A DNA stretch of 31,782 bases, taken from NCBI GenBank assembly GCA_046759445.1, contig JBHICG010000038.1:1-31782 (forward strand), given 5' to 3'. The DNA is from Candidatus Scalinduaceae bacterium. GTDB lineage: Bacteria > Planctomycetota > Brocadiia > Brocadiales > Scalinduaceae. How positions within the stretch are numbered: the stretch's first letter is position 1; each line of letters opens with the position of its first letter. A program made the position numbers and the translations under genes. The notes beneath the pieces are model-generated. The model made no database searches and had not been told where the DNA came from. It worked only from the letters and a program-made list of their open reading frames with translations. Shown here piece by piece: positions 732 through 31,782 of the stretch.

Positions 732-1619
732 CTAAAAGAACAGACTTAAGGCATCAGTCTCCTTTTCCACATTTTCAGCAAGAACCTGTTGAAACCTGTT
801 AAGGTTAGACTCATTCCATTCAATTCCATACGATTTAGCCAGCTTGATAATATCAGGGTAAAGAGATTCGGCCTTAAAGGGATTATCCTCTTCATCTTCA
901 GCTTGTATCTTGTATATATGTGCAAACATATCAGCAATGTGTGTAACTAGTGGTAAAAGAGATTTTTTGTCTGTTTCCTGTGGGCGATGATGAAAACCAA
1001 CAGCCGTTAGTAGATTTTCAGGAAACATCCACTTTTTCAGAAGTCTCAATCCAACTTCATCATGGGTTATTCCAAAGATGTTTTTCTCCACCTCAAAGGC
1101 CATGAATTTTAGTTTCAAAGGGCTTACAATTTCAATCAACTTAAAAAATTCTATTGGCAAGGCAATGTATATGACCAGTTTCCCTATATCATGAATGAGA
1201 CCAGCCACAAAGAATTCATTACTTGCATTTTTCAAATCGGTCGCAATAATCTTTGCTGCAAGACCACAAACAAATGAATGTTTCCAGAATTTCCCGATAT
1301 CAAATTTTGCATTTTTTTCAATATTCTTAAAACTATCAAATACGACTGTGGATATAACCAGGTTTCTCACCTCCTTAAAACCCAAAACCATTATAGCGTG
1401 TTGCAGTGAGTCTACATTCCTTGAAAGTCCATAAAATGGTGAATTGGCTATTTTAAGTATCTTTGTGGTAAGGGATACGTCAGGATTGATAACATTCATA
1501 AGATCATTTGCCGAACTGTCCTTGTCGGCAGTAATTTCCAGAACCCTGAACGCCACGGTTGGCAATGTGGGAATGGAATCCATTTTAGCGGTGAGAGTGG
1601 AAATTGTATTAGAACTCAA
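732..1619 (-). CDS. HDOD domain protein
   Basis: IPTLP...DVSLTTKILKIANSPFYG...AIMVLG...FWKHS...AGLIHDIGK...FHH motifs; TTG start with GGAGG SD. Confidence 0.92.
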   Translation of the reverse strand: MSSNTISTLTAKMDSIPTLPTVAFRVLEITADKDSSANDLMNVINPDVSLTTKILKIANSPFYGLSRNVDSLQHAIMVLGFKEVRNLVISTVVFDSFKNIEKNAKFDIGKFWKHSFVCGLAAKIIATDLKNASNEFFVAGLIHDIGKLVIYIALPIEFFKLIEIVSPLKLKFMAFEVEKNIFGITHDEVGLRLLKKWMFPENLLTAVGFHHRPQETDKKSLLPLVTHIADMFAHIYKIQAEDEEDNPFKAESLYPDIIKLAKSYGIEWNESNLNRFQQVLAENVEKETDALSLFF

Positions 1620-1667: not shown

Positions 1668-3302
1668 TCAGGATTTAACTTTTACCATGATCCCCCGCAC
1701 TTTTTCATTTGCCTTTGTTAAAACTTCTTCAGATACGTTAAGTAGTCCCTTTTTCCCAATGATTTCAAGAAACAGAGAAACCAGCATGGGATCGAACCGT
1801 TTTCCAGCATTATCAGCAAGTTTTTCAATTATATTTTCAGCAGGAAGGTTTTTCTTAAAAGATTGTTCAGATAACATATTGACGATTGCATCGGCTATTG
1901 CGAATAGTCTTGCACCGAGAGGAATTTCATTAGCCTTAAGCCCTTCAGGATAGCCAGAACCATCAAAATTTTCATGATGGTATAGAAGCACCGATCTTTC
2001 ATTGCCAAAAAAGTCGAACAATTCGGTCAGTTCTGCCATCATATATGGATGGTCTTCAATCTCGACCCTTTCGCTGGTATTCAGTGCTTTACTTTTACTT
2101 TTCAACGTTTTTTTCAACAATGTTTTGAAGTTGTCGTGAAGAGATGCTGCGCGTTTAAAGGTGTCAACAATAGAAGGGGGAAGATTAAGCCTTTCTCCTA
2201 TGAGTTTAATGTATTGCTTAACTTGCTGGTTGTGTTTCTGGTATTCAGAGGTACTTATATCCCGCACTAATAGTCCCAAAGATTCCATAGATGCCTTTTT
2301 TGTTTTTTCCAAAATAGATGAGAGGTTTTCCTTTAGGTATCTGATATCTTTGTCTTCACTTATTTCACCATCTACAGACTGCCATGAAGTGCCATCCATG
2401 TAAACCTTGACCCTGTTTCTTCCCTCTGCCTTGGCACAATAAAGGGCCTTGTCTGCAAATGCTACAAGCTCTTTACTTTTTGACGGTTGATGAAGTTTCA
2501 CGGATGCCACACCTATACTCACGGTTGCAGTTGTTGAACTGGTTCCATCGTCATACGTTTTTGTCTCACAGGTAGAGCGAATTTTTTCTGCTAGACTCCG
2601 TGCCCCGTCTAAGCCAGTGTTTGGAAGAAGTATCATAAATTCTTCCCCACCATATCGAAAGGGAATATCCGTCTTTCTCGCGTTCTTCTTTAAACGGGCA
2701 GAAAAATCAAACAAAACAAAATCACCAAAGGCATGTCCAAAGGTATCGTTTATTTCTTTAAAATAATCTATATCAAGCAGAAGGCAGGACAAATCGGTTT
2801 GATATCTCTGGGCACTGGAAAACTCCTTTTCAAGGATTTCTGCCATATGATGACGATTATACAAACTGGTCAGCTCGTCATAGATTGCCTGTTTCTGCAT
2901 GACATTGTGTGCACATAAAAGCTTTTCATTCAATTCAATAATACGCCTTCCAGCTTTCAGTCGTGCCTTGAGTTCCATTTGATTGAATGGTTTGGTGATA
3001 TAGTCGTCCGCCCCTGCCTCCATTCCCTGGATAATATCCTCCTGTTCGCTTTTAGAGGTAAGTAACAAGATAAATGTATATGGTTCTCTGGCCAGTTTTC
3101 TAACCTTGCGGCATATCTCCACACCATCCATACCTGGCATCATCCAATCTAGGATTAGAAGATTCGGTGAATTTTCAGACTGAATGACCCGCCAGGCTTC
3201 GAGGCCATCCTTGCACGATATAACCTCATAATCCATGCTTTCTAAAAACTTTTCCAATCTGCGCCGTGAGATATTTTCGTCTTCGGCAATCAATACTTTC
3301 AT
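1668..3302 (-). CDS. Response regulator with diguanylate cyclase (GGEEF) and C-terminal HD-GYP-like domain
   Basis: REC (AEDE, LDWMMP, ITKP); GGDEF domain (DELTSLYNR, DIDYFKEINDTFGH, RKTD I-site, RYGGEEF); HD-GYP part (SLHD, HHENFDGSGYP). Confidence 0.92.
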   Translation of the reverse strand: MKVLIAEDENISRRRLEKFLESMDYEVISCKDGLEAWRVIQSENSPNLLILDWMMPGMDGVEICRKVRKLAREPYTFILLLTSKSEQEDIIQGMEAGADDYITKPFNQMELKARLKAGRRIIELNEKLLCAHNVMQKQAIYDELTSLYNRHHMAEILEKEFSSAQRYQTDLSCLLLDIDYFKEINDTFGHAFGDFVLFDFSARLKKNARKTDIPFRYGGEEFMILLPNTGLDGARSLAEKIRSTCETKTYDDGTSSTTATVSIGVASVKLHQPSKSKELVAFADKALYCAKAEGRNRVKVYMDGTSWQSVDGEISEDKDIRYLKENLSSILEKTKKASMESLGLLVRDISTSEYQKHNQQVKQYIKLIGERLNLPPSIVDTFKRAASLHDNFKTLLKKTLKSKSKALNTSERVEIEDHPYMMAELTELFDFFGNERSVLLYHHENFDGSGYPEGLKANEIPLGARLFAIADAIVNMLSEQSFKKNLPAENIIEKLADNAGKRFDPMLVSLFLEIIGKKGLLNVSEEVLTKANEKVRGIMVKVKS

Positions 3303-3431: not shown

Positions 3432-3833
3432 TTAATTATTGGGTTTAATAAATTCCCTTAACGCATTCACCAGACGTTCTACTTCCCTCACCAAAATTCC
3501 ATAAATTTCTTCAACATCGTCCAGTCTGCTTTGTTCACTCATCATTTCCAACTTCAAGGCTGTTTTAAATACTGGCTTTTTCCCAAAATAAGCAACTGCC
3601 CCCTTCAGTTTATGGGCTGATTTCTCCAGAGCTTTGAGATTACGGCTACTAACGGCCTCTTTTATATTAGACATAAGTTCAGGAGAGTCATTAATAAACA
3701 TTTCTGCCAGTTCTTTCAGAAATTCCTCGTCGTCCTCGATTATTTTGAGTGCTTCGTCCTTGTCAAAGACCGTCTTGCTCTCTTGTACCTTTTCTTCATT
3801 GTAATTAACGATATCGTTTGAATTTGTTTTCAT
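3432..3833 (-). CDS. Stand-alone Hpt phosphotransfer protein
   Basis: SAHKLKGAVAYFG motif in a 133-aa helical protein. Confidence 0.9.
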   Translation of the reverse strand: MKTNSNDIVNYNEEKVQESKTVFDKDEALKIIEDDEEFLKELAEMFINDSPELMSNIKEAVSSRNLKALEKSAHKLKGAVAYFGKKPVFKTALKLEMMSEQSRLDDVEEIYGILVREVERLVNALREFIKPNN

Positions 3834-3884: not shown

Positions 3885-4460
3885 CTAAACACGCAGCTTG
3901 CCTAACCGAGAAATAAGCTTGTTGCGAATGCCTTTTGGTGATAGGACATAATCTACGTTCCCCGTATCAATGGCAGCTTTAGGCATTCCCCAGATTACGC
4001 TGGTTTTCTCATCCTGTGCAAACGTAGTCCCACCGATTGATTTAATATAGCTTATTCCTTCAGCCCCATCTCTTCCCATACCGGTCATGATCATACCGTT
4101 GATGTTGATTTCTGGAGTTCTTCTAATTGATTTCATCGTTACGTCCACAGAGGGGCGAACGTAACACACCTTTGGACTGTTAGTTAATCGGATTTTCCGA
4201 TTGTTTACGAGTTCCAGATGAATCTCACTTGGAGCAATGTAAACCGTTCCAGTTTCCAGGTGTTCTCCGTGGTTGGCAATTCTCACGTCCATTTCAGTTA
4301 AACTGTCTAATGTATTTCTTATCGATTTGTTCACAAACCTGGGCATGTGTTGGACCAGTACAATACTTGCATCCAGAAGTGGTAGCCCCTCAAAGAATTT
4401 TCTCAAGATTTTGGGACCTCCCGTTGATATACCTATGATGACGATGTTTTGCTTTATCAT
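3885..4460 (-). CDS. cheB: CheB-type methylesterase, catalytic domain only (no receiver domain)
   Basis: GISTGGP, VQHMP, RPSVD, TGMGRDGAEG, AQDEKTSVIWGMP; only 191 aa. Confidence 0.88.
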   Translation of the reverse strand: MIKQNIVIIGISTGGPKILRKFFEGLPLLDASIVLVQHMPRFVNKSIRNTLDSLTEMDVRIANHGEHLETGTVYIAPSEIHLELVNNRKIRLTNSPKVCYVRPSVDVTMKSIRRTPEININGMIMTGMGRDGAEGISYIKSIGGTTFAQDEKTSVIWGMPKAAIDTGNVDYVLSPKGIRNKLISRLGKLRV

Positions 4461-4660: not shown

Positions 4661-5035
4661 TCATTGCACGTATCCAATATACTCTGCCACCGTTTCTAAT
4701 AGTTCCTCAGAAGTGAAGGGCTTTCTCACGTAGTCTATCACACATTCAGTCAGCTTTTCCATTTTTGGGCCCGGAGCATTTACCGCCGTGAGCATGCAGA
4801 TGACATTTCCGCCGTGCAGTCCTTCATCCTCAATCGCCGCAATTGTATCCCATCCATCCATTTCTGGCATCATAATATCCATGAGAATCAAACCCCTGAA
4901 ACCATTTCTCAGTTTGTCCAGACATTCCATTCCGCTCTCGACGGCACAGATTGAATATCCACCGGCACCAAGGACAATCTTCACTGTTTCCCTGATAGAT
5001 GGATCATCATCCACTATCATTACTTTCTTGTTCAT
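4661..5035 (-). CDS. Single-domain response regulator (REC only)
   Basis: MIVDDD, ILMDIMMPEMDG, LTA and VRKP motifs; 124 aa. Confidence 0.92.
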   Translation of the reverse strand: MNKKVMIVDDDPSIRETVKIVLGAGGYSICAVESGMECLDKLRNGFRGLILMDIMMPEMDGWDTIAAIEDEGLHGGNVICMLTAVNAPGPKMEKLTECVIDYVRKPFTSEELLETVAEYIGYVQ

Positions 5036-5183: not shown

Positions 5184-6314
5184 TTAGTTTGTATTACATA
5201 GTGGAATCGCAAAATTCATCGTTGTTCCCTGCCCGGGTCCTGGACTTTCTGCCCAGATAGCCCCTTCATGCTTTTCGATTATTCGTCGGCAGATAGCAAG
5301 ACCCAACCCCGTAGAGGAACGGTCATTCCGAGAATCATCCACCTTGTAGAATTCTTCAAATATATGCCTAAGCTGTTCCTCGGTCATCCCCACACCTGTG
5401 TCTTCAATGGATATCCTTATATTGCCATCACTACAGAACCCTTCAAACGTTACAAATCCTCCACTATTTGTGTATTTAACGGCATTGCTGATGAGGTTAT
5501 GAAGTAATTCCTTGATCAATACCCTATCTACCTCAAGCACAAGGGGAGAGACAATATTGTTTACGACTGTAATACCACCCTCTTCGAATACGGATGAAAG
5601 ACTGGCAATGATGTTCCGAATTTCGCTTAGGAGATCTATTCTTTCATAATTCAATTGCACACTCGGTGCATTCAACCTTGCAAGCTGTAATGTCATTTCA
5701 GTCAGATTTTTCATATAGCCTACATTTTCCATAACCAGGCTCAGCATCCTCTTGGACTCTGGGTCATTAGTTTTGCTCTCTACCATAGGTAAAAGAGCCA
5801 CAAGTGGTGTCAGTGGCGTCTTTAGGTCATGACTGAGCTGGTTTACGAACGCATCCTTTTGTCGAAGAAGTTTTTTGATCTCGGCCGTCCGTTGTTCCAC
5901 CCGCTCTTCCAACTCCAGGTTGAGTTTTGCTAACTGATCCTGAAGTTGCTTAGTGCGTAAGGCAGCCCGAACGCGGGCTCGTAATTCAAAAGCGTCAAAA
6001 GGTTTTGTAACGTAATCCACAGCCCCCAGATCCAGCCCTCTAACACGACTTTTATTATCGTCCCAGGCGGTCAGGAAAATTATGGGAATCGTACAAAGCT
6101 CAATATCATCCTTAAGGATTCGGCAGACCTCGAAGCCGGACATATCAGGCATGTCCACATCCAAAAGGATTAAATCCGGCTTGCTTTGTCGAGCCACCTC
6201 CAGGGTGTTTTTTCCACCCTCTACGCAGATTACGTTAAGCTTTTCCTTCGCCAGACGGGCCTTGGCGATGGCTGAGGCCTTCGGATTATCATCAACAATT
6301 AGAACCTTCATCAT
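5184..6314 (-). CDS. Cytoplasmic hybrid histidine kinase (REC-HisKA-HATPase)
   Basis: REC (VDDN, LLDVDMP, VTKP); H-box LSHDLKTPL; N-box NLISNAVKY; G boxes DTGVG and TGLGLAI. Confidence 0.93.
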   Translation of the reverse strand: MMKVLIVDDNPKASAIAKARLAKEKLNVICVEGGKNTLEVARQSKPDLILLDVDMPDMSGFEVCRILKDDIELCTIPIIFLTAWDDNKSRVRGLDLGAVDYVTKPFDAFELRARVRAALRTKQLQDQLAKLNLELEERVEQRTAEIKKLLRQKDAFVNQLSHDLKTPLTPLVALLPMVESKTNDPESKRMLSLVMENVGYMKNLTEMTLQLARLNAPSVQLNYERIDLLSEIRNIIASLSSVFEEGGITVVNNIVSPLVLEVDRVLIKELLHNLISNAVKYTNSGGFVTFEGFCSDGNIRISIEDTGVGMTEEQLRHIFEEFYKVDDSRNDRSSTGLGLAICRRIIEKHEGAIWAESPGPGQGTTMNFAIPLCNTN

Positions 6315-6842: not shown

Positions 6843-9800
6843 CTATATTTGCACTTCCCTGCCTCGATCCACTGCCTGGCAAAGTATGGCAAATTTATCC
6901 AGGGCCGACGTGCATGCATCGTTATCTTTCGCCTTTGCCGCACCCTCAAGTATCGTTGCCGCCTCGGTCAACATCGGATATCCGTAGCTTCCACCTGCCC
7001 CCTTCATCTGGTGTGAAAGCCGACGAAGACCGTCATAGTCACCATGTTCTAATGCTAGACGCATAGCCTTTATATCATCTCCCAGCCCGGCAGCAAACTC
7101 ATCGATGAGTTCTACCAGGTCTAAATCGTCTGTATACTCCGAGTAAATAACCTCTGGCGCCTCCTGTTTTGCCGTTTCTGTATCCGTCACTACGGATAGT
7201 GAAGATTGTTGAGATTTATGTTCCTTGCCGTTATGGAGGCATCTCTCGATCACATCGGCAAGTTCCCGTACGTTAATAGGCTTGGTAACATAATCATCCA
7301 TACCAGCCTCAAGACACTTCTCACGGTCACCCCTCATGGTATTGGCAGTCATGGCTATTATGGGAATCCTATGATTCCTGACTGTTGAATTCTCATTTCG
7401 TATCGTGCGCGTAGCCTCATAACCGTCCATCTCCGGCATCTGGCAGTCCATCAGTACCAGGTCGTAATCCAATCTCTCCAGCGATTCGATGGCCTCCTTG
7501 CCGTTGGTAACTACATCAGCATGATATCCAAGTTTTTTGTCCAAAATGCGTAAGGCGATCTTCTGATTGATGATGTTGTCCTCAGCCACGAGGATGCGAA
7601 TACGTCTCTTGTGATCCTCGGATATAGAATGTCGCGTGACAATCTGTCTGGAAGTATCTTTCCCTGTACTTGCAGATTTCCCGGTAACAATCCTGAGACA
7701 ATCAAACAATTGCGACTGCTTAAGCGGCTTGACCAGATACGCCGCAAAACCCATCCTTCTAAAATGACTGGCATCTCCTCGCTTGCCAACGGAAGTCAGC
7801 ATTACAAGAATCAGGTCTTTAAGTTGGGGATCTTCCTTGATTTCCTTGCTAAGTGATTCTCCATCCACCTCCGGCATACAATAGTCAAGCAAGGCAATCT
7901 TAAATGGATCGCCTTCGTTAACGGCATCACGAAGTTTCTTCATAGCTTCCTCGGCCGAGCCGGCCTCTTTAACCCGGCAATGCCAGGATTCGAGGTATGC
8001 TCTAAAGATGTGAAGATTTGTACTGTTGTCGTCAACAACAAGCACTCGCATATTCTCTATATCACCTAATTCAATTGGAACCTGTTGCTGGCCAGAAGGC
8101 TGTTTTTCCAGCACTACCGTAAACCAGAAGGTTGATCCCTTGCCCTCTTCGCTTTCGACATCAATCACACCCCCCATTAACTCGACAATCTGTTTGGAAA
8201 TCGCAAGCCCCAGACCGGTGCCACCGTACTTTCTGGTGGTAGAGGTATCTACCTGAGAGAATGATTGGAACAGCCGATTCATACGGTCGGCAGGGATGCC
8301 AATGCCCGTATCTCTAACAGCAAACCGCAGAGTGGCGTGTGAATCAGTTTCTCTGGCCAGACTTATGCTGATGGCAACCTCGCCATCCTTTGTGAATTTT
8401 ATGGCGTTGCTAATAAGGTTAATCAACACCTGTCGCAACTTACCAGGGTCGCCGCGTAAAAGAGGTGGAACTTCAGGATCAATAAAGTACGTAAGCTCCA
8501 AGCCCTTCTCACTTGTCTTGAAGGTGAAGATATCTATGATGCTATCCACCGAGATGCGGAGATCGAAGTCTATCTTCTCCAGCTCCAGTTTCCCGGCTTC
8601 TATCTTGGAGAAATCCAGTATATCATTAATAATAGTGAGCAAAGAGTAAGCGCTCTCACGAACTGTGCTTGTGTATTCATACTGTTCCCGGTTCAATTCT
8701 GTATCCATCAGCAGATTCGTCATGCCTATAACACCGTTCATGGGTGTTCGTATCTCATGGCTCATGTTGGCCAGAAACTCACTCTTGGCTGTGTTAGCAA
8801 CTTCGGCATCCTCTTTTGCAAGCTTCAGTTCATTCTCTGACTGCTTACGGGCTATCGCATCAGCCAGTAGGTTAGCTACAGCCTGAAGGAAGTTGATGTC
8901 ATCTTGGCCAAAGGTCTTGCTATGGGTTGCATGCGTACCCAACACACCCCATGGGCCTTTTTTACCCTGAATAATCACGCTCATTCCACTAACTACACCA
9001 TGGTCATGTAGCAGTGGTGGTCCAGAAAATCGCTTTTCAGTGCTCAGGTCTTCTACAATTACGGGTTTGTTTGACTTCAACGTATAGCCTGCCTGTGAAT
9101 CCAATCTTGTGGGGACAGTAGTCTGTCCTACAAGACCTTCCTTCCAGCCAACACCCGCCCGTAATAGCAAGGCCTTGCCGTCAGGCACCAGCTCGAGAAT
9201 TTTGCAGTATTTGTTATCCAGTATAGCTGCAATGTTCCTTACTACATCGTTCATTAAGGTCGTTAGGTCTCCACCTGATAGGGCCTTATGTCCTAGATTA
9301 ACCACAATATCCTGTTGACGAGCATGTATTTTCAATGCTTTCTCAGTTCGCTTGCGCTCGGTGATGTCTTCTTTGACTGCAATGAAATGTGTGATCTTTC
9401 CATCCTGATTCTTTATTGGAGAAATGGAGGCATACTCCCAATAAAGTTGGCCGTTCTTTTTCTTATTATGAAATTCTCCCACCCATTCATTACCAGAAGT
9501 AATGGTATCCCAAAGCTCCCTGTATTCTTCAGAGGTTTTGTCATCTGATTTTAGTACTCTTGGGTTTTTCCCTATGACTTCTTCGTATGTGTAACCTGTT
9601 GTTTGCATAAATTTTTTGTTAACATATTCGATATTACCTTTGGTATCCGTAATAACTACAGAAACCGGGCTTTGTTCAATGGCTCTGGATAATTTACGGA
9701 TTTCTTCTCCCCTTTTTTCCCTTTCAGTTATATCCCTTATGATAGACATAAAAGTGTATCGATCCTCACTATCCTTTTGAAAGGATAAAGACATTTCTAT

Positions 9801-12101
9801 TGGTATTTCAACCCCTTTTTTCGTTATTCCATAAATTTTTACTGTTTTACCTATAATTCTAGTTTCATGTGTCTTTAAAAACCGCTCCAGTCCCTCTTTA
9901 TGCTGCTTCCTATATCTTTCAGGAATAATGGTTGTTATCGGTTGTCCTATGATTTCACTTTTTGTATATCCAAAGGTATCTTCTGCTAATTTGTTCCAGA
10001 CATTAACTATACCTTTTTCATCAATGCTGATAATTGCATCTTGTGCATTTTCTATAAGTTTCCGATATCCTTCTTCAGATTTTCCTTGTAACACCTCTGC
10101 CCGCTTGCGGTTTGTGATTTCACTTGTAAGCCCATCGGCCATTTTGTTAAAGTTGGTAGCTAGGATGCCTATCTCATTTCTTGACTTAATTTCAGCCCTT
10201 AAAGACAACTCCCCATCGGCTATATTTTGCGTAATCTTGGTCAATCCCAAAATGGGTTTTAAAACTCGATTCCTTGACCACCAAATGAAAAAAATGAAAG
10301 CAAAAAATGTAAAACCAATAATAATGTAACTTATCTGCATGTTTCTTTTTGCAGTAGAATCTATCGCTAACATTACAGTATTTGCCTCTTCACCAGCAAT
10401 ATTCGAGATAGCTAATCCTGTATTGATAGCCTTTGTTGCTGCATCGAACCAAGCTGAAGCGCTTACTGGATACTCCACTCCTTTGCCTCGTTTAATAATA
10501 ACCCAGAATTTGTCGTTGTCAGACTCAAAATTGAGGAATAATGGTTTATAAACAATCACTCTTCCTGAAACTAAACGTACACTCCCTACTTTCCCTGAAA
10601 GTATCTGTTCTGCTACATCGGGATAGTCTTGTCTTATATTATGATGAGATTTGTTGAGCAACTCCATCATTCCCCATTCTTTCACTTCATCTGGATGATG
10701 GATGTAAAACCCATCTTGATTAGCTAAAATATAGTCTCCTTTTTCTTCCTTCTCTATGACTTTATGCAAAAATAACGGAGTATTTGTCAGTAAGTTAAAG
10801 ACGATAATGCCGGCTTGCTTTCCATCCACAAAAACTGATGTTGCAAAGCGAATAACAGGTTTATGAGGAATTTCGGTTTTTCCATGCTCTATGTTAAGGT
10901 CGAGCGGAGAAGTATATATTCTCCCTGGTGGTAGGTTTATGGATTCTTGGAAATAATATCTGTTACTTTTATTCTGTAATTGTGTTCCGCGAATTATTTT
11001 GGTGGTCTCACCATCAAAATCAACACGCACACGCTCATACCCGAAATTATCCAAAAACCGAATCTGCGCATAGACCCTTTTTAATTGAGAAAATGTGCTA
11101 AGCAAATTTTCCACAGAAATTAGCCATTCAGATAAATGAAAATCTTCCTCAGCCTGCCAGGCTCTAGCCAATGTTATTACACTTTTATGTTTGCTTATAT
11201 TCAACAAATCATTGAATATTCCAGATAAATAATTTTGAAAAATCATACTTTTTTTTGTGATTTGCTCTTCTGCATTCTTTATCTCTTCTTTTTGTCTCTT
11301 GCTCGACGAAAAAACTTCTTCCCTTAAAAGTTGAAATTCAACAATGAATTCCTCTACAAACGTATCAATAGCCTGTTTCATCTGGTTTGAAGTAGATGGC
11401 AACTCTTTCAAAAGCAATACCTGACCAAGAGATTGCACCACTATGGAACGGTAGTTTTTGATACTATTGATGGTATCATTAGTAAAAGGCAATCCTGATG
11501 CAATGGCATTACCCACAAGAGCGCGCTCCCGTCCAGCAAATTCGCATAATCTTGCTATATTGGGACGCAGGACATTGTTCAAATAGAGTATATTTTCTTC
11601 CATTTTTTGCGGGGTAAGGGCAACACTGCGCAAGTTAAATTCGCTATTTATATTATGGGTGGCAATATGGAGCCATTTATCTTTGGAAATGTCATTATTT
11701 GCGATTTTGGAGCGGGTAAGTACTAGAATCTCATATATCTTACGCCATTTTTTTAGTCTTTTTTCAAATGTTTTATCCTTTTTTATACTTAATATTTTTT
11801 TTATGTTTTCTTCAATTTGTAAGACTACGGAATCTCCTTTCTCTGCCATTTCAAGGAATTTTGAGAAGAGGGGAGATGAGTTACCTTTACCACTTCCGAT
11901 TATTGTGGCACCATAACCACGTTCAATTGCCTGCCACCCTGCTGCAATATTCACGTGGCCAGCTATTGCATTTTTTATAACATATTCTTCTGATTGCTTA
12001 CGCGTTTCAAATGATCTTCTTATTGATATTCCTAACAGTACAACAAATACGCATAGTAAAATTGCCGAAACAAGGAAGATTTGGAATTTTAGTGATTTCA
12101 C
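6843..12101 (-). CDS. Membrane-bound hybrid histidine kinase: TM-[NIT-like domain with inserted Cache]-TM-HAMP-PAS-PAS-GAF-HisKA-HATPase-REC-REC-Hpt
   Basis: Two TM segments (aa ~7-26 and ~590-608); HAMP ([13 protein letters not shown]); two PAS domains; [30 protein letters not shown]; two REC domains (LLDYCMP, LMDCQMP); Hpt [12 protein letters not shown] start with GGAG SD. Confidence 0.93.
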
Positions 12102-13031: not shown

Positions 13032-13673
13032 TTATGAAAAAATCACTCTTTCGCGTGCGATACGTTTGAGTTCCTGAGTAAACATTTTATTGTCTTTTTC
13101 TTCTGAGGGTAGTTCTTTCTTCTCAGGCTCAGTGCCTTTGCTTACTTTTCCTAAACGACTATTTAGTTTTAATATCTTCCCTGTAACTTGTTCTACATCT
13201 GCAATATCGTCGGACAATTGTTTATTTATTTTTTCAATCTTCTTTTGCAAATTGCCCTTCCCTTTTAATTCTGCAAGCTTCTTTCGTGCGTTTTTTATCT
13301 CCTTTATTTCTTTGCTGTGAGATTTTTCAGTTTTTTTTGGGTTCATATCAGCTTCTATGTCACGAATCTCTTTGTCTAACTGCTGTTGGAATGCTTCAAT
13401 TTCTGAAGTCGAATGTTTTCCCATTTCACGGATACTGTTTTCAAGACATTCATTCATCTGGTTAAGCCTGGCACGAAGTTGTTCTATTTTAGCGAGATAG
13501 CGTTTAATAGAAGCGATATAGCGCTTTTGTTTCTGGAAAGATTTGGAATTAACAAGCTTGTCTTTCCATATTCGAATAGCATTAATATGTCTTTCTATTT
13601 CTTTTCTTGTTGTATTCTTTTGAGTAATATCATGTTTTAGCTTCCTTACAATAGTTGTGTTTGTGTTCACCAT
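13032..13673 (-). CDS. Hypothetical Lys/Glu-rich coiled-coil protein
   Basis: 213-aa ORF with a strong SD (GGAGG 7 nt before ATG) and heptad-like charged helices; no recognised motif. Confidence 0.75.
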   Translation of the reverse strand: MVNTNTTIVRKLKHDITQKNTTRKEIERHINAIRIWKDKLVNSKSFQKQKRYIASIKRYLAKIEQLRARLNQMNECLENSIREMGKHSTSEIEAFQQQLDKEIRDIEADMNPKKTEKSHSKEIKEIKNARKKLAELKGKGNLQKKIEKINKQLSDDIADVEQVTGKILKLNSRLGKVSKGTEPEKKELPSEEKDNKMFTQELKRIARERVIFS

Positions 13674-19775: not shown

Positions 19776-21409
19776 TCAAGCATTTAGGTGGTAATATGAG
19801 GGGAGTGTAGCAATTCTTTTGTCTTCTACGGCTGCTCCAACGGTAAAATGGTAAAGGCTTTGAAAAGAATTTTCAGTAAAACCTAAGATTTCGTGTACCA
19901 TATCATCGTAGAAACACCCAATTCCAGTACCCCTGACTGAATGCGCCTCTGCCTCCAGATATAGAACCTGACCAATCATCCCTGTTTCCCAGAATAGATG
20001 ATGATACAAATATGGTGCTTTTTCGACATTTTCTCTAAATTTCGCAATCATACCCAGCGAAAACACTCCATCCCCAGCAATTTCTTGCTGGCAACTGACT
20101 GTCTTTGCTCTGTTGTGAAAGTCACCCCTTTTTAAAAAATAGATAAAGAGTTTATCAGGTGCTCCTTTTATTCTCTCCCATAAAAAATCATGATGAGTTT
20201 TCCCTTTGATTTCTTCAAAATCCTTTTCGTTGCGTATCAAAAAATACAGTCCAGGTTCTAAGTCTGAGACTCGATGTACAAATAAAAGAAGGTGTATAGA
20301 AGTTCTACCAAGTTCTAGATCAAATGGGGCACAGTGGTTTCTCGGGATTGTTTTATCTAAAATAGAGAGGAACTGCTCTTTAGTAATAGGTGTTTTTCCA
20401 TCATAAGCAAGAGCGCTTCTTCTCTGTCGAATTATTTCAATTCCACTTTTTTGGGGGGCTTGCCTTTGAAAGAAATCATAGTCATCGTACACATACGCCG
20501 CTTCATCTGTCTTAGGTTTTTGTGTCCACGAGGCAACGTTATCTATAATATCCCAATCAACGTGTTCTTTACTTAAGTCATTCGGTTTTCCTTTAAATGT
20601 AAGAGTTTCAAAGTATGAGATGATATCTGGAGGAAGGGAACGAGGAATGTTTTCACCTGTATTTTTGTAGATAAAGAATAAGAGATCGGGATGTTCTTCT
20701 TCAAATTTTGTCCATTCTGTTTGTCTTAATCCCAAAAGGTTTCTGTTTCGCGATCTGACAAGGTATTTAGATAAATAATCTTCCATCCCAAAAGATTTGC
20801 AGAAAAACTCAGACATGCCATTGCATGTCCAACATCATGATTACAATAGCGAAATGCCCGTTCTCCGTATTTCCAGGATTCTCTCCAGTAGATACTGCTT
20901 AAACCTATAAGGAAACCGTCTCTTTTAAAATGTTTTTTTACCTTGGTCCACAAATCTTCCTTAAACATTGCCCTTACTTCCAGTGCGTGGAGGTAGGGAT
21001 TATAATGGCAAACACAACCCTGATTATTATTTTCCGGGATTGGTGGCAAGATAAGGTGAGATTCTGTTGGATGGAGGTTTCCGCTTGAGGGGTTAATTCG
21101 AAGTGACCAGGAATTTCCTGGTATCGATTTCCACGCAGATAATCCCAAAGACAGTTCCAGAAAGGTGGCTATGTTTTGCATAGAAAACATGTGAAAATTG
21201 TTCTTTTTTCTTTCATACAAGCAGGAATAATCTGCATCCAGATGTTTTTCCAGGAAAGGCAACTTTAAAATTCTTGTGCCTTCGTAAAACCTAAAAGGGT
21301 TTGGTTGATTTTCCCAATCAAGAAATCCAGATGATCTTGCATACCTATTGGGATAGTGTTTTGTCTCTTCGTGATAGCGTATGGTGTTTTTGGAATTATT
21401 GTTTTCCAT
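19776..21409 (-). pseudogene. SagB/ThcOx-type nitroreductase-family protein split by a frameshift near 20725-20740 (pseudogene or sequence error)
   Basis: ORF 20726..21412 carries YHEETKH, LDWENQP, LRINPSSGNLHPTE and WRESWKYGERAFRYC; ORF 19776..20816 continues with IRQRRSA, ETGMIGQVLYLEAE and GTGIGCFYDD. The two halves join at ...ETET / LLGL... by a one-base shift. Confidence 0.82.
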
Positions 21410-21495
21410 CAAAATATGAAAAATTTATCGTATGGAGGAGCAAAATCTAGTGACTTAGTACTACATTTCATAAATACGGTTACGTATTTTAACTG

Positions 21496-28934: not shown

Positions 28935-28963
28935 TATGTCCAAGTTCCTGAGGTTTTTTGCCT

Positions 28964-31782
28964 ATGTTAAAAACATATCTAAAAAGAATATTTGAGGTAG
29001 CAAAGAGAGGCGATGCCACAGAAGAAAGCTATTATTCATGTCTTAAAGAACTACTTGAGAATTATGCTGCTTCTGTAAATAGAAAAAAGACCCACGTTAC
29101 GATAATTCCTAAAAGGACTGAAGCAGGCAACCCAGACTTTAGAATATGGGACGGTAAACAACACATTGTTGGTTATATTGAGGCAAAAGCTCCTACAGTT
29201 GAGCATCTAGATCAAATAGAAACTACAAACCAATTAAAACGCTATCTACATACCTTCCCTAATTTAATACTTACCAACTTCTTTGAATTCAGGCTTTATC
29301 GAAACGGCACGTTGATAGATAAAGTTTTAATAGGTAGACCGTATCATATACACAAACTTAAATCTACGCCTCCGGTAGAAAGGGAAAAAGATTTTTTTAA
29401 ACTCCTTGAAAAATTCTTCTCCTTTAAGCTTCCAAAAACATATACTGCAAAATCTCTTGCCATAGAACTTGCAAAAAGAACACGCTTTTTGAAAGATCAA
29501 GTAGTAGCAGAAGAATTAAAAGAGGAAAGCGAAAAGGAAGAAGGTTTTATCCTGGGATTCTACAAGGCATTTCAGACTCACCTGATTGGCAATCTTACAC
29601 ACGATGATTTTGCTGATTTATATTCACAAACTATTACATATGGCCTTTTTGCTGCAAGAACACGGTCTGAAAACGGTTTTAATCGTAAACTTGCTTTCGA
29701 TAATATTCCTCGCACAATAGGAATCCTAAGAGATGTATTTAGGTTCATTTCACTTGAAGATCTACCCAAACAGATGGAATGGATTGTTGATGATATTGCA
29801 GAAGTCTTAGCTGTTACCAATGTAAATAATATACTTCACAAGTATTATCACGAAGGTAAGGGCAAGGATCCTATCATACACTTTTATGAAACGTTTCTTG
29901 CTGAATATGACCCTAAAGAACGGGAGAAAAGGGGTGTCTATTACACTCCGGAACCTGTAGTTTCATATATTGTTCGTTCAATACAATATCTCTTAAAGCA
30001 AAGATTTGGTAGAGGTGATGGTTTTTCGTCAAGCTCTGTAACTGTGCTTGATCCTGCTGCTGGCACCTTGACCTTTCTCGCCGAGGCAGGCAAACTGGCG
30101 ATTCAAGAATTTATCACAAAATATGGAGAGGCAGGTAAGAAGGACTTGATAAAAGAACACATTCTGAAGAATTTCTATGCCTTTGAGCTTATGATGGCGC
30201 CTTATGCAGTTGGTCATTTGAAGATGTCATTTCTCATAGAGGAGTTTGGATATAAATTACAAGATAGTGATAGGTTTAAGTTATACCTTACAAACACCCT
30301 GGAAATGGAAGATCTTGCGGAATCTGTTTTCCCTGGTATGTCATCATTAGCGGAAGAATCTCATTTAGCAGGGAAAGTTAAGAAACAACAGCCTATCCTA
30401 GTTTTACTCGGAAATCCACCTTATTCGGGTCACTCCTTCAATCCTAGCGAAAAATGGGTGTCTTATACAAATCAGAAAAGTGGTAAAGAAACAAGAAGGA
30501 AGAAAAAAACATGGATAGGAAAGCGTATCGAGGATTACAAAATTGTGGATGGAAAAGAACTTGGAGAGAAAAACCCAAAATGGCTACAGGATGATTATGT
30601 TAAGTTTATTCGTTTTTCGCAGTGGAAAATCGATCAGGCAGGAGAGGGAGTTTTGGGTTTTATTACTAACCATAGCTATCTGGATAATCCTACCTTTAGG
30701 GGTATGCGACAATCTTTGACGAATAGTTTCAATGAGATTTTTATCCTTGATTTACATGGTAACAGCCTCAAGAAAGAGAAATGTCCTGATGATTCTAAGG
30801 ATGAGAATGTTTTTGATATTCAGCAAGGGGTAGCTATCGCCCTCTTTATAAAAAGACTAAATGTAAAAGGAAAATGTAGGGTTTATCATTCTGAGAGATG
30901 GGGCTTAAGAGAAGATAAATACGATTGGCTATTGCAGAATGAAATAGAGACTACAAAGTGGAAGAAGTTGTCACCAAAATCTGAATTTTATTTTTTTATT
31001 CCAAGGGATGAAAAACTATCAAAAATTTATGAGAAGTATCCGAAGATAACAGACATTTTCCCTGTTAAAAGTGTTGGGATAGTCACTGCAAGGGATAAAT
31101 TTGTGATCGATATAAATAAGGATTCCCTAAAAGGACGTATTATGGAGTTTCGCAATAAAACCGTATCCAATGAAATCATTCGAAAAAGCTTTAATTTAAG
31201 GGACAAATCCAACTGGAAGTTAAAAGAAAGAAGAGAAAAGATAATAAATGATAAGAATTGGGAAGAAGCTATTACTAAAATTCTTTACAGGCCCTTTGAT
31301 ACCAGATGGATTTTTTATCATGATGATGTTGTAGAACGTTCACGCAAGGAGGTTATGCAACATATGATGCAGGAAAATATAGGGTTGATTGTCAACAGAC
31401 AAATTCGTATGGAGAAAATCCAACATTCATTGGTTACAGATAAAATTGTAGATTTACATATACTTGAAACAGCACATGCAAGCGCTTATGTCTTTTCCCT
31501 TTATCTCTATCCACAAAGAAATAACCCCGGAAAACGCTCTTTTAGTAGTACTATGATGCTTTTTGAACCAAAAGCAGATTACAATGTAAAAAAACCAAAC
31601 CTCTCTAAGGTGCTACTCAAACAACTTACAACAAATTTTAGAAAAGAACCAATTCCTGAACAAATTTTCTATTATATTTATGCAGTGCTTTATTCAAACA
31701 TTTACCGCACTAAATATGCTGAATTTCTGAAGATAGAGTTCCCGAAGGTTCCATTCACAAAGGATTTTAAACTTTTTCAAAA
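28964..31782 (+). CDS. Single-chain restriction-modification enzyme (PD-(D/E)xK nuclease + N6-adenine methyltransferase + Type ISP/LlaBIII-like specificity domain); truncated at window end
   Basis: Not in the ORF track because there is no stop. Motifs are all in one frame: GNPDF...GYIEAK, GVYYTPEPVV (29933), VLDPAAGT, GNPPYSG (30410), LQDDYVKFIR, YAVLYSNIYRTKYAEFLKIEFP (near 31680). Confidence 0.9.
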   Translation, partial: MLKTYLKRIFEVAKRGDATEESYYSCLKELLENYAASVNRKKTHVTIIPKRTEAGNPDFRIWDGKQHIVGYIEAKAPTVEHLDQIETTNQLKRYLHTFPNLILTNFFEFRLYRNGTLIDKVLIGRPYHIHKLKSTPPVEREKDFFKLLEKFFSFKLPKTYTAKSLAIELAKRTRFLKDQVVAEELKEESEKEEGFILGFYKAFQTHLIGNLTHDDFADLYSQTITYGLFAARTRSENGFNRKLAFDNIPRTIGILRDVFRFISLEDLPKQMEWIVDDIAEVLAVTNVNNILHKYYHEGKGKDPIIHFYETFLAEYDPKEREKRGVYYTPEPVVSYIVRSIQYLLKQRFGRGDGFSSSSVTVLDPAAGTLTFLAEAGKLAIQEFITKYGEAGKKDLIKEHILKNFYAFELMMAPYAVGHLKMSFLIEEFGYKLQDSDRFKLYLTNTLEMEDLAESVFPGMSSLAEESHLAGKVKKQQPILVLLGNPPYSGHSFNPSEKWVSYTNQKSGKETRRKKKTWIGKRIEDYKIVDGKELGEKNPKWLQDDYVKFIRFSQWKIDQAGEGVLGFITNHSYLDNPTFRGMRQSLTNSFNEIFILDLHGNSLKKEKCPDDSKDENVFDIQQGVAIALFIKRLNVKGKCRVYHSERWGLREDKYDWLLQNEIETTKWKKLSPKSEFYFFIPRDEKLSKIYEKYPKITDIFPVKSVGIVTARDKFVIDINKDSLKGRIMEFRNKTVSNEIIRKSFNLRDKSNWKLKERREKIINDKNWEEAITKILYRPFDTRWIFYHDDVVERSRKEVMQHMMQENIGLIVNRQIRMEKIQHSLVTDKIVDLHILETAHASAYVFSLYLYPQRNNPGKRSFSSTMMLFEPKADYNVKKPNLSKVLLKQLTTNFRKEPIPEQIFYYIYAVLYSNIYRTKYAEFLKIEFPKVPFTKDFKLFQ

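Follow-up and report, generated by a model that had tools for sequence, protein, structure and literature searches.

Can one periplasmic sensor domain be carried in a loop of another, and could a single receptor then read two signals at once? The question is raised by a gene in a 31,782-nucleotide stretch of DNA from a Candidatus Scalinduaceae bacterium (GenBank assembly GCA_046759445.1, contig JBHICG010000038.1, positions 1 to 31,782; hereafter the window, meaning the whole of this stretch). The gene encodes a transmembrane hybrid histidine kinase, and a preliminary description made from the letters alone had seen in its ectodomain a NIT (nitrate/nitrite) domain split by an inserted Cache domain. 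We conclude, with high confidence, that an eight-helix NIT-type domain of this kinase carries a nested Cache domain in the loop that joins its helices 7 and 8. The full statement, in which the nested architecture also integrates two signals in the periplasmic sensor, we hold at a probability of roughly 0.6.

In order, the kinase comprises a first transmembrane helix (TM1), the split NIT domain with its nested Cache domain, a second transmembrane helix (TM2), HAMP, two PAS domains, GAF, HisKA, HATPase_c, two REC domains, and Hpt. Hydrophobic stretches at amino acids (aa) ~6-27 and ~588-608 flank a region of ~560 residues, which must therefore be periplasmic (aa ~28-587). The interval originally given for the sensor, 10330-11975, corresponds to aa 43-590; it does delimit the ectodomain, except that the first ~15 residues are left out. 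The features of the gene, with the evidence for each, are as follows.

6843..12101, reverse strand: entire gene, encoding a transmembrane hybrid histidine kinase of 1752 aa from a GTG start codon (list of open reading frames, translation, Pfam)
12021..12086, reverse strand: TM1, aa ~6-27 [22 protein letters not shown] (hydrophobic in translation; within the continuous model helix 4-70)
11295..12014, reverse strand: helices 1-7 of the NIT-type domain, aa 30-269, holding E60-R61, R130, W143, E192-R193 and R260 (weak Pfam NIT match, insert-less relatives, conservation)
10485..11294, reverse strand: inserted double-Cache (double-PDC) domain of the PF21623 type, aa 270-539 (Pfam, PDB sequence search, Foldseek, model, gap in insert-less rows)
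10341..10484, reverse strand: conserved Y544-P545-V546 linker and NIT helix 8, aa 540-587, including W551 and T556 (insert-less relatives, model, split-chain fold)
10278..10340, reverse strand: TM2, aa ~588-608 [21 protein letters not shown] (translation; within model helix 548-609)
10128..10274, reverse strand: HAMP, aa 610-658 (Pfam PF00672, 46.8 bits)
6846..10127, reverse strand: cytoplasmic signalling part (Pfam: PAS at ~682-790 and 803-915, GAF 945-1083, HisKA 1105-1170, HATPase_c 1217-1331, two REC, Hpt 1664-1745)

The phosphorelay domains are all in one chain (Pfam: HisKA 82.5 bits, HATPase_c 112.8, Response_reg 158.6 in two stretches, Hpt 40.6), and the stronger match of the two REC domains is aa 1503-1618. 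Base composition is uneven along the gene, with a G+C content of 0.47 in the part encoding cytoplasmic domains (7001-9000) versus 0.36-0.37 in the part encoding the ectodomain (10001-12000); most of the remaining window lies at ~0.34-0.40. Amino acid composition, or recombination between paralogous kinases, could be the source of the contrast inside the gene.

The boundaries of the insert are best drawn from natural relatives. An exhaustive HMMER search with aa 30-595 returned 8135 proteins at E ≤ 0.001, and the best 150 were re-aligned locally. Three classes stand out among these 150.

Full architecture (fused): 38 full-length proteins plus fragments, aligned across the entire ectodomain as one stretch (28-67% identity)
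Insert-less: 26 proteins, aligned in two stretches (aa ~30-270, then aa ~539-594) separated by 0-17 residues
Cache-only: many proteins, with the match confined to aa ~270-540 and lying directly after their own TM1

For the insert-less relatives, a class that the preliminary description had proposed to look for, E values reach down to 6e-85 in the first stretch and 2e-16 in the second. In a 95-row alignment the complementary gaps of the insert-less and Cache-only rows are clean. The insert is thus aa ~270-539, and the helical domain ends with the helix at 548-587, displaced in the kinase by about 270 residues. The insert-less relatives are kinases and chemoreceptors with no ectodomain other than the NIT domain; the 28 fused relatives that were scanned comprise 26 kinases and 2 chemoreceptors. 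The closest sensor homologues among the matches listed are from Scalindua. The ClpX encoded in the window shares 84% identity with that of Candidatus Scalindua rubra and 67-69% with those of Brocadia, which likewise points to a marine anammox bacterium of the Scalindua lineage as the source of the DNA. Homologous proteins are already present in public databases under generic names (e.g., "PAS domain S-box protein," "response regulator"). Some fused and insert-less members (P0025, P0041, P0059) have a hemerythrin domain at the C-terminal end, which would provide an additional cytoplasmic input, of an oxygen, iron, or nitric oxide type, to the same receptors.

Predicted structures place the displaced helix in the same position. 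AlphaFold2 modelled aa 1-610 from the 95-row alignment with a mean per-residue confidence (pLDDT) of 93.9 and a predicted TM-score (pTM) of 0.84. In this model, helices at 4-70 (TM1 plus helix 1), 79-106, 110-134, 140-161, 167-202, 208-232, and 239-303 are followed by the short helices and strands of two alpha/beta modules, a last strand at 532-539, and then a single helix at 548-609 that runs through TM2. The model of an insert-less relative (P0039, pLDDT 95.1) has helix 7 at 231-261 and helix 8 starting from 269, so that both models contain eight NIT helices. Because helix 7 spans only 231-261 in the insert-less form, helix 7 of the kinase (239-303) simply continues as the stalk of the Cache domain. 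As the helices alternate in direction from TM1 onward, the 7-8 loop should be at the membrane-distal end, and the Cache domain is predicted to sit atop the NIT bundle.

Folding aa 30-269 and aa 540-596 as two chains gave a score of 0.79, and the best of three controls scored 0.00. A score of 0.79 is reached by 116 of 157 solved complexes and by 2 of 215 mismatched pairs, counts that are rough because our own alignment was used. At least 97% of the contacts agree between runs, with partner pLDDT of at least 75. The contacts join residues 540-577 to 168-205 and 228-269 (helices 5-7), with W551 beside R193/196/197/200. The preliminary description had made its proposal hinge on the packing of aa 545-575 onto the N-terminal helical bundle, and such packing is what the split-chain fold predicts. 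Two halves of a single domain are prone to pass such a test through likeness to solved folds, and the result is best read as a predicted fit of the helix to the second bundle (i.e., packing likeness), not as affinity or binding. The insert-less and Cache-only relatives, the two AlphaFold models, and the split-chain fold all agree with the nesting of one sensor domain in a loop of another, as originally proposed.

How widespread is this arrangement, and did it arise once? A scan of one genome per species, using a 26-row alignment seeded on the two E-R motifs described below, yielded at least 72 loci. Of those listed (72), tblastn classed 36 as fused, 20 as insert-less, and 16 as partial or other. 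The fused loci are distributed as follows.

Planctomycetota (Scalindua, Scalinduaceae, Anammoxibacter, unnamed): at least 19 loci
Thiomargarita / Parabeggiatoa: at least 4 loci
Alphaproteobacteria (Rhodospirillaceae, Thalassospiraceae, Sneathiellales bins): at least 6 loci
Gammaproteobacteria bins: at least 2 loci
Magnetococcales: at least 2 loci
Unclassified Pseudomonadota: at least 1 locus
Nitrospinota: at least 2 loci

Among the loci listed, fused forms thus occur in three phyla (Planctomycetota, at least 19; Pseudomonadota, at least 15; Nitrospinota, at least 2), mostly in organisms of the nitrogen cycle such as Scalindua, Thiomargarita/Parabeggiatoa, and Nitrospinota. Several Scalindua bins hold at least two or three fused loci each, with differing cytoplasmic parts. 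Insert-less forms were found in Nitrospinota, Nitrospirota, Thiomargarita, one Scalindua bin (L018), Myxococcota, Sedimenticola, Gracilimonas, and others.

In a tree of the NIT part (77 rows, insert columns omitted), fused and insert-less forms are intermixed, with at least eight changes of state, at least five of which are forced by well-supported branches. In a tree of the Cache part (116 rows), a branch with 98% support has on one side 57 of the 58 rows labelled fused, plus 2 Cache-only proteins; the sole exception, P0130, lacks a NIT domain and is not fused (Pfam). Judged from these sequence trees, the simplest reading is probably a single ancient insertion and co-evolution of both parts, followed by repeated clean loss of the insert.

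What kind of domain is the host? The motifs of the preliminary description lie exactly where it placed them, with WQAIERG at 56-62, LTRSKI at 128-133, and [11 protein letters not shown] at 142-152 in the first half, and CEFAGRERA at 186-194, QLLREEVF at 257-264, and [11 protein letters not shown] at 550-560 in the second. It had also given the Arg-to-Trp distance as 13 aa in one half and about 290 aa in the other; the spacings are 13 residues (R130 to W143) and 291 residues (R260 to W551). When profiles of the two halves, built from 24 natural insert-less relatives, are compared using hhalign, they match with a probability of 82.6% and an E value of 9.7e-6 over 102 columns. The alignment pairs WQAIERG with AGRERA, the helix-3 Arg with the helix-7 Arg, and W..AT.NI with W..ATkAI. 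The internal duplication that had been noticed by inspection is therefore beyond chance, and the host consists of two duplicated four-helix halves, each with E-R on its first helix, Arg on its third, and Trp on its fourth.

Membership in the NIT superfamily follows mostly from relatives of the kinase. The cut-off of the Pfam NIT profile (PF08376) is passed by 10 of the 24 insert-less relatives, at 30.3-43.9 bits, and in all 10 the match extends to position 225 of the profile or further and thus includes the last helix. Among the 28 fused relatives, 17 have a NIT match at E ≤ 0.01 and 8 score above the cut-off; 7 of these 8 matches end at profile positions 148-203, just before the Cache domain, as is expected of a split domain. 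In P0021, for example, the NIT match stops 75 residues ahead of the start of the PF21623 match. The weak match of the kinase itself pairs aa 181-264 with profile positions 125-203 of 239, and excised aa 35-270 is assigned to NIT at 16.2 bits. The N-terminal half (aa 35-183), when excised, has Pfam matches at chance level only, and an NCBIfam scan of aa 1-610 found no family. A Foldseek search of the PDB with the insert-less model P0039 gave two chains of NasR (4AKK) as the only matches at E ≤ 0.001 (E 2.6e-4 and 5.1e-4, 17% identity). These results support, by homology to members and at the level of the superfamily, the placement of the host in a divergent branch of NIT. The NIT label of the preliminary description thus stands for the superfamily, with relatives passing Pfam and NasR as the top structural match; the kinase itself remains under the Pfam cut-off.

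The putative pocket of the host is strongly conserved. Conservation was counted in 53 fused, 24 insert-less, and 18 Cache-only rows. In the fused rows, E60 is kept in 51, R61 in 52, R130 in 52, W143 in all 53, E192 in 50, R193 in 51, R260 in 49, Y544 in 52, W551 in 52, and T556 in 49; E60 is kept in 23 of the 24 insert-less rows and each of the other nine in all 24. The E-R pair on helix 5 of NasR (E175/R176) is predicted to line the nitrate pocket, according to a published account (PMC7496416). For the NIT ligand-binding domains of PscN and Dd15070, binding of both nitrate and nitrite with micromolar affinity is described in another study (PMC12358799).

The insert is a double-Cache domain. 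PF21623 (HK_sensor_dom_bact) matches aa 329-530 at 82.1 bits against a cut-off of 27, and the excised segment at 84.7 bits; a sequence search of the PDB matches the insert to a Vibrio parahaemolyticus sensor (2P7J/3LID) at E 1e-15. A Foldseek search with the whole model gives 3LID/2P7J/3LIE (E 9e-18 to 4e-14, target TM-score 0.75-0.84), with dCache chemoreceptors next; it returns Cache structures only, because the Cache domain dominates the model. In the ESM Atlas every score was below 0.9 and the clusters matched were all of Cache type, which is uninformative. The modelled fold, in which a long N-terminal helix leads into a pair of alpha/beta modules of PAS-like form, agrees with the assignment to double-Cache domains. 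The Cache motifs lie at aa 344-536, and IRxLD..G.E.VR, KS.R.YF, and P..P..R are conserved in alignment with 2P7J/3LID. The earlier suggestion that aa ~268-541 looks like a double-Cache module was therefore correct. The flanks of this domain are NIT helices 7 and 8, not transmembrane helices, as seen both in the alignment of relatives and in the model. That a Cache domain is held by helices of another sensor domain instead of by transmembrane helices is a new feature.

The Cache domain also has a well-kept set of pocket residues: of the 53 fused rows, R348 is present in 48, E356 in 52, R359 in 50, K378 in 46, Y383 in 49, R418 in 49, Y466 in 52, H469 in 50, and W476 in 47, and the same residues are conserved in the 18 stand-alone relatives. 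So many conserved basic residues suggest a ligand that is anionic. The closest solved Cache domain, VP0354/3LID, is listed as phosphate-binding in a survey (PMC8694187). Given the conserved residues of both pockets, both domains look functional, and both probably bind ligands.

Five further proteins whose Cache domain starts near residue 210-270 (P0124, P0129, P0130, P0136, P0149) were considered as additional nested forms and rejected, because HAMP lies directly after the Cache domain with no NIT helix between them (Pfam). In these proteins a PF21623-type Cache domain is preceded by an unannotated region of ~200-270 residues, a tandem arrangement.

A number of observations weigh against a nested sensor of nitrate or nitrite and a second ligand. 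The kinase scores 19.0 bits against Pfam NIT when aa 1-610 are searched and 15.0 bits at full length, and thus falls short of the cut-off of 24.9. The last helix, excised as aa 535-600, has no Pfam match, and there is no NIT match at E ≤ 0.01 in 14 of the 24 insert-less and 11 of the 28 fused relatives. The match of the insert-less model to NasR has low TM-scores (0.28-0.34) and a high root-mean-square deviation (13.8-35.6 A), because the transmembrane and HAMP helices and the ANTAR domain lack a counterpart in the other structure. A profile of seven short insert-less forms searched against PDB sequences matched only in the TM2/HAMP region (Tsr, NarQ, and others) and did not find NasR. Regarding ligands, nitrate and nitrite both fail to bind to the NIT domain of PA4520, and the authors of that study suggest a NIT superfamily with differing ligands (PMC6381276). 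The phosphate in 3LID may have come from the crystallisation solution. No nitrogen-metabolism gene is found among the neighbours adjoining the kinase gene, and it is from conserved residues that we infer nitrate or nitrite as the putative ligand of its NIT domain. As to the history of the family, both trees were made by a quick method and are unrooted, so that the direction of change from fused to insert-less is the presumed one. Lastly, nitrogen-cycle taxa could be enriched through common marine low-oxygen habitats and gene transfer rather than through function.

Several of these points converge on the alternative that survives best, namely that the nested architecture is real and the host senses neither nitrate nor nitrite. 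The host would then belong to a branch of the NIT superfamily with another ligand, or would be a rigid stalk or dimerisation scaffold, and the Cache domain would be the sole ligand-binding module. The sub-threshold Pfam score of the kinase, the sizeable share of relatives that have no NIT match, the behaviour of PA4520, and the absence of nitrogen genes nearby all favour it. A passive stalk, however, is hard to reconcile with paired E-R, R, and W residues that match the predicted pocket positions of NasR and are near-invariant in the 53 fused and 24 insert-less rows; a conserved site fits better. Moreover, the insert-less relatives have no ectodomain but this helical domain, which must therefore be able to sense by itself. 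The concentration of the family in organisms that use nitrite or nitrate also speaks against the alternative. On balance we consider this alternative unlikely, though it deserves to be taken seriously.

A second alternative accepts the NIT domain as a sensor and proposes that the Cache domain binds no small molecule, acting instead as a docking module (e.g., for a periplasmic binding protein), as a dimerisation module, or as a spacer. There is precedent, in that the double-Cache-like domain of LuxQ works via a partner protein and appears with the entry "no cofactor or ligand binding" in PMC8694187, and the insert has been lost several times without destroying the receptor. Yet R348, E356, R359, K378, Y383, R418, Y466, and H469 are kept just as in the 18 stand-alone relatives, and the closest solved relative has a bound anion (also PMC8694187). 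We therefore judge a ligand-free Cache domain to be improbable. A simple tandem of NIT, Cache, and a linker helix leading to TM2, which Pfam taken alone would suggest by giving a shortened NIT match and then PF21623, or else an assembly artefact, is hardly credible, as the helix after the Cache domain packs on helices 5-7 in the split-chain fold and finds its homologue (E down to 2e-16) in the final NIT helix of 26 insert-less relatives, placed there right after helix 7, and as the same arrangement recurs in at least 36 independent loci from three phyla.

How might the nested receptor work? Helix 8 is part of the NIT bundle. A conserved linker of 8 residues (Y544-P545) joins it to the last Cache strand, and at its other end it leads uninterrupted into TM2 and HAMP. 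Nitrite or nitrate, as a nitrogen oxyanion, may bind in the Arg/Trp pocket of the NIT bundle, next to W551, and a second small ligand, probably anionic, may bind in the Arg/Lys/His-rich pocket of the Cache domain. Both the ligand at the NIT pocket and a ligand-driven movement of the Cache domain would then act on helix 8 and TM2. This helix would set the activity of the kinase and of the downstream phosphorelay, and the kinase would integrate two periplasmic signals. The logic of the two inputs could be AND, OR, or modulation.

To our knowledge, little is known of how anammox bacteria sense nitrite and nitrate. These bacteria remove a large share of the fixed nitrogen of the oceans. A bolder proposal, which we put forward tentatively and think doubtful, is that the whole family is a two-input periplasmic logic element. 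In it, a nitrite/nitrate-binding NIT bundle and an anion-binding Cache domain would converge on one signalling helix, and in anammox bacteria it would be the primary sensor of nitrite (the substrate) and nitrate (the product) measured against a second environmental cue. The family numbers several paralogous kinases per genome in anammox bacteria and extends to sulfur bacteria that store nitrate and to nitrite oxidisers. If the proposal is true, the repeated clean loss of the Cache domain shows that such a gate can be reduced to a one-input sensor.

The family is, in any case, a defined candidate for regulation in anammox bacteria, expanded in Scalindua (at least three fused loci in some bins) and common to other users of nitrate or nitrite. 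It is also a tidy example from nature of an extracytoplasmic sensor domain lodged within another, with both sets of pocket residues conserved and with insert-less and Cache-only relatives as built-in controls. The receptor makes it possible to test directly how one transmembrane helix combines two inputs, and it could serve as a template for engineered two-input biosensors. Furthermore, nested sensors are systematically missed in annotation because domain searches give only a shortened or sub-threshold NIT match.

Genes for signalling proteins lie downstream of the kinase on the same strand, from 6314 down to 732.

5184-6314, reverse strand: receiver-HisKA-HATPase protein
4661-5035, reverse strand: single receiver
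3885-4460, reverse strand: CheB-type methylesterase domain, stand-alone, without its receiver
3432-3833, reverse strand: Hpt protein
1668-3302, reverse strand: receiver-GGDEF-HD protein
732-1619, reverse strand: HDOD protein

These downstream genes suggest that the phosphorelay of the kinase ends in control of cyclic di-GMP (c-di-GMP), although their linkage to the kinase is uncertain because a 529-base gap lies between. The methylesterase is odd, as there is no chemoreceptor or CheR nearby. On the other side, between the kinase and pyrI/pyrB, is a 213-aa open reading frame rich in Lys and Glu (13032-13673, reverse strand), which probably encodes a coiled coil and has no Pfam match. Elsewhere in the window, at 19776-21412 (reverse strand), a 346-aa nitroreductase-family reading frame (weak, 29 bits) overlaps by ~90 bases with a 228-aa reading frame that starts with TTG and has no Pfam match; the start of one of the pair may be miscalled. 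Running off the end of the window is a gene (28958-31780, forward strand) for a large restriction-modification enzyme of Type ISP, which pairs an N6 DNA methylase domain with a specificity domain of the Type_ISP_C kind.

How does the receptor compare with known systems? The preliminary description knew of no account of this architecture, and in the full-text literature searched, which leaves most subscription journals outside its coverage, we found no Cache domain nested in a NIT domain, no mention of PF21623 in print, and no study of NIT domains in anammox bacteria. Both domains are already known; what is new is that they are nested, and that the nesting apparently arose once and was then lost repeatedly. 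The NIT domains (PF08376) of Klebsiella oxytoca NasR (4AKK), PscN, and Dd15070 are all-helical, as the host is in its models, and share with it an internal duplication with E-R starting each half. NIT domains are also found between two transmembrane helices in kinases and chemoreceptors. In contrast to NasR, PscN, and Dd15070, the domain of the kinase has a 270-residue Cache domain set in ahead of its last helix, scores under the Pfam cut-off, and is known here from sequence and models. The insert shares its PF21623 family and fold with VP0354 (vpHK1S-Z8) of Vibrio parahaemolyticus (2P7J/3LID/3LIE). However, in VP0354 and the stand-alone relatives the Cache domain is between TM1 and TM2, and in the kinase it is between NIT helices 7 and 8.

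The kinase is also comparable to multimodular extracytoplasmic sensors (dCache, HBM, Cache_3-Cache_2), in which more than one sensing module is present in one ectodomain. "Bacterial sensor evolved by decreasing complexity" (PMC11804620) describes simpler receptors that seem to be derived from a complex one via module loss, as appears to be the case here. Multimodular sensors, though, are duplications or fusions of like modules in series, whereas in the kinase the nested partners are unrelated in fold, one being a helical bundle and the other an alpha/beta domain of PAS-like type. In the alpha2-delta subunit of calcium channels, a VWA domain interrupts a Cache domain. This is a domain-in-domain arrangement with Cache as the host; in the kinase the roles are reversed, with Cache inserted and another sensor domain receiving it. 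Similarly, Cache_heme, described as a Cache fold with a helical heme-binding insertion (bioRxiv 10.64898/2026.05.25.727664), is a domain within a domain like the kinase, but there too the Cache fold is the host.

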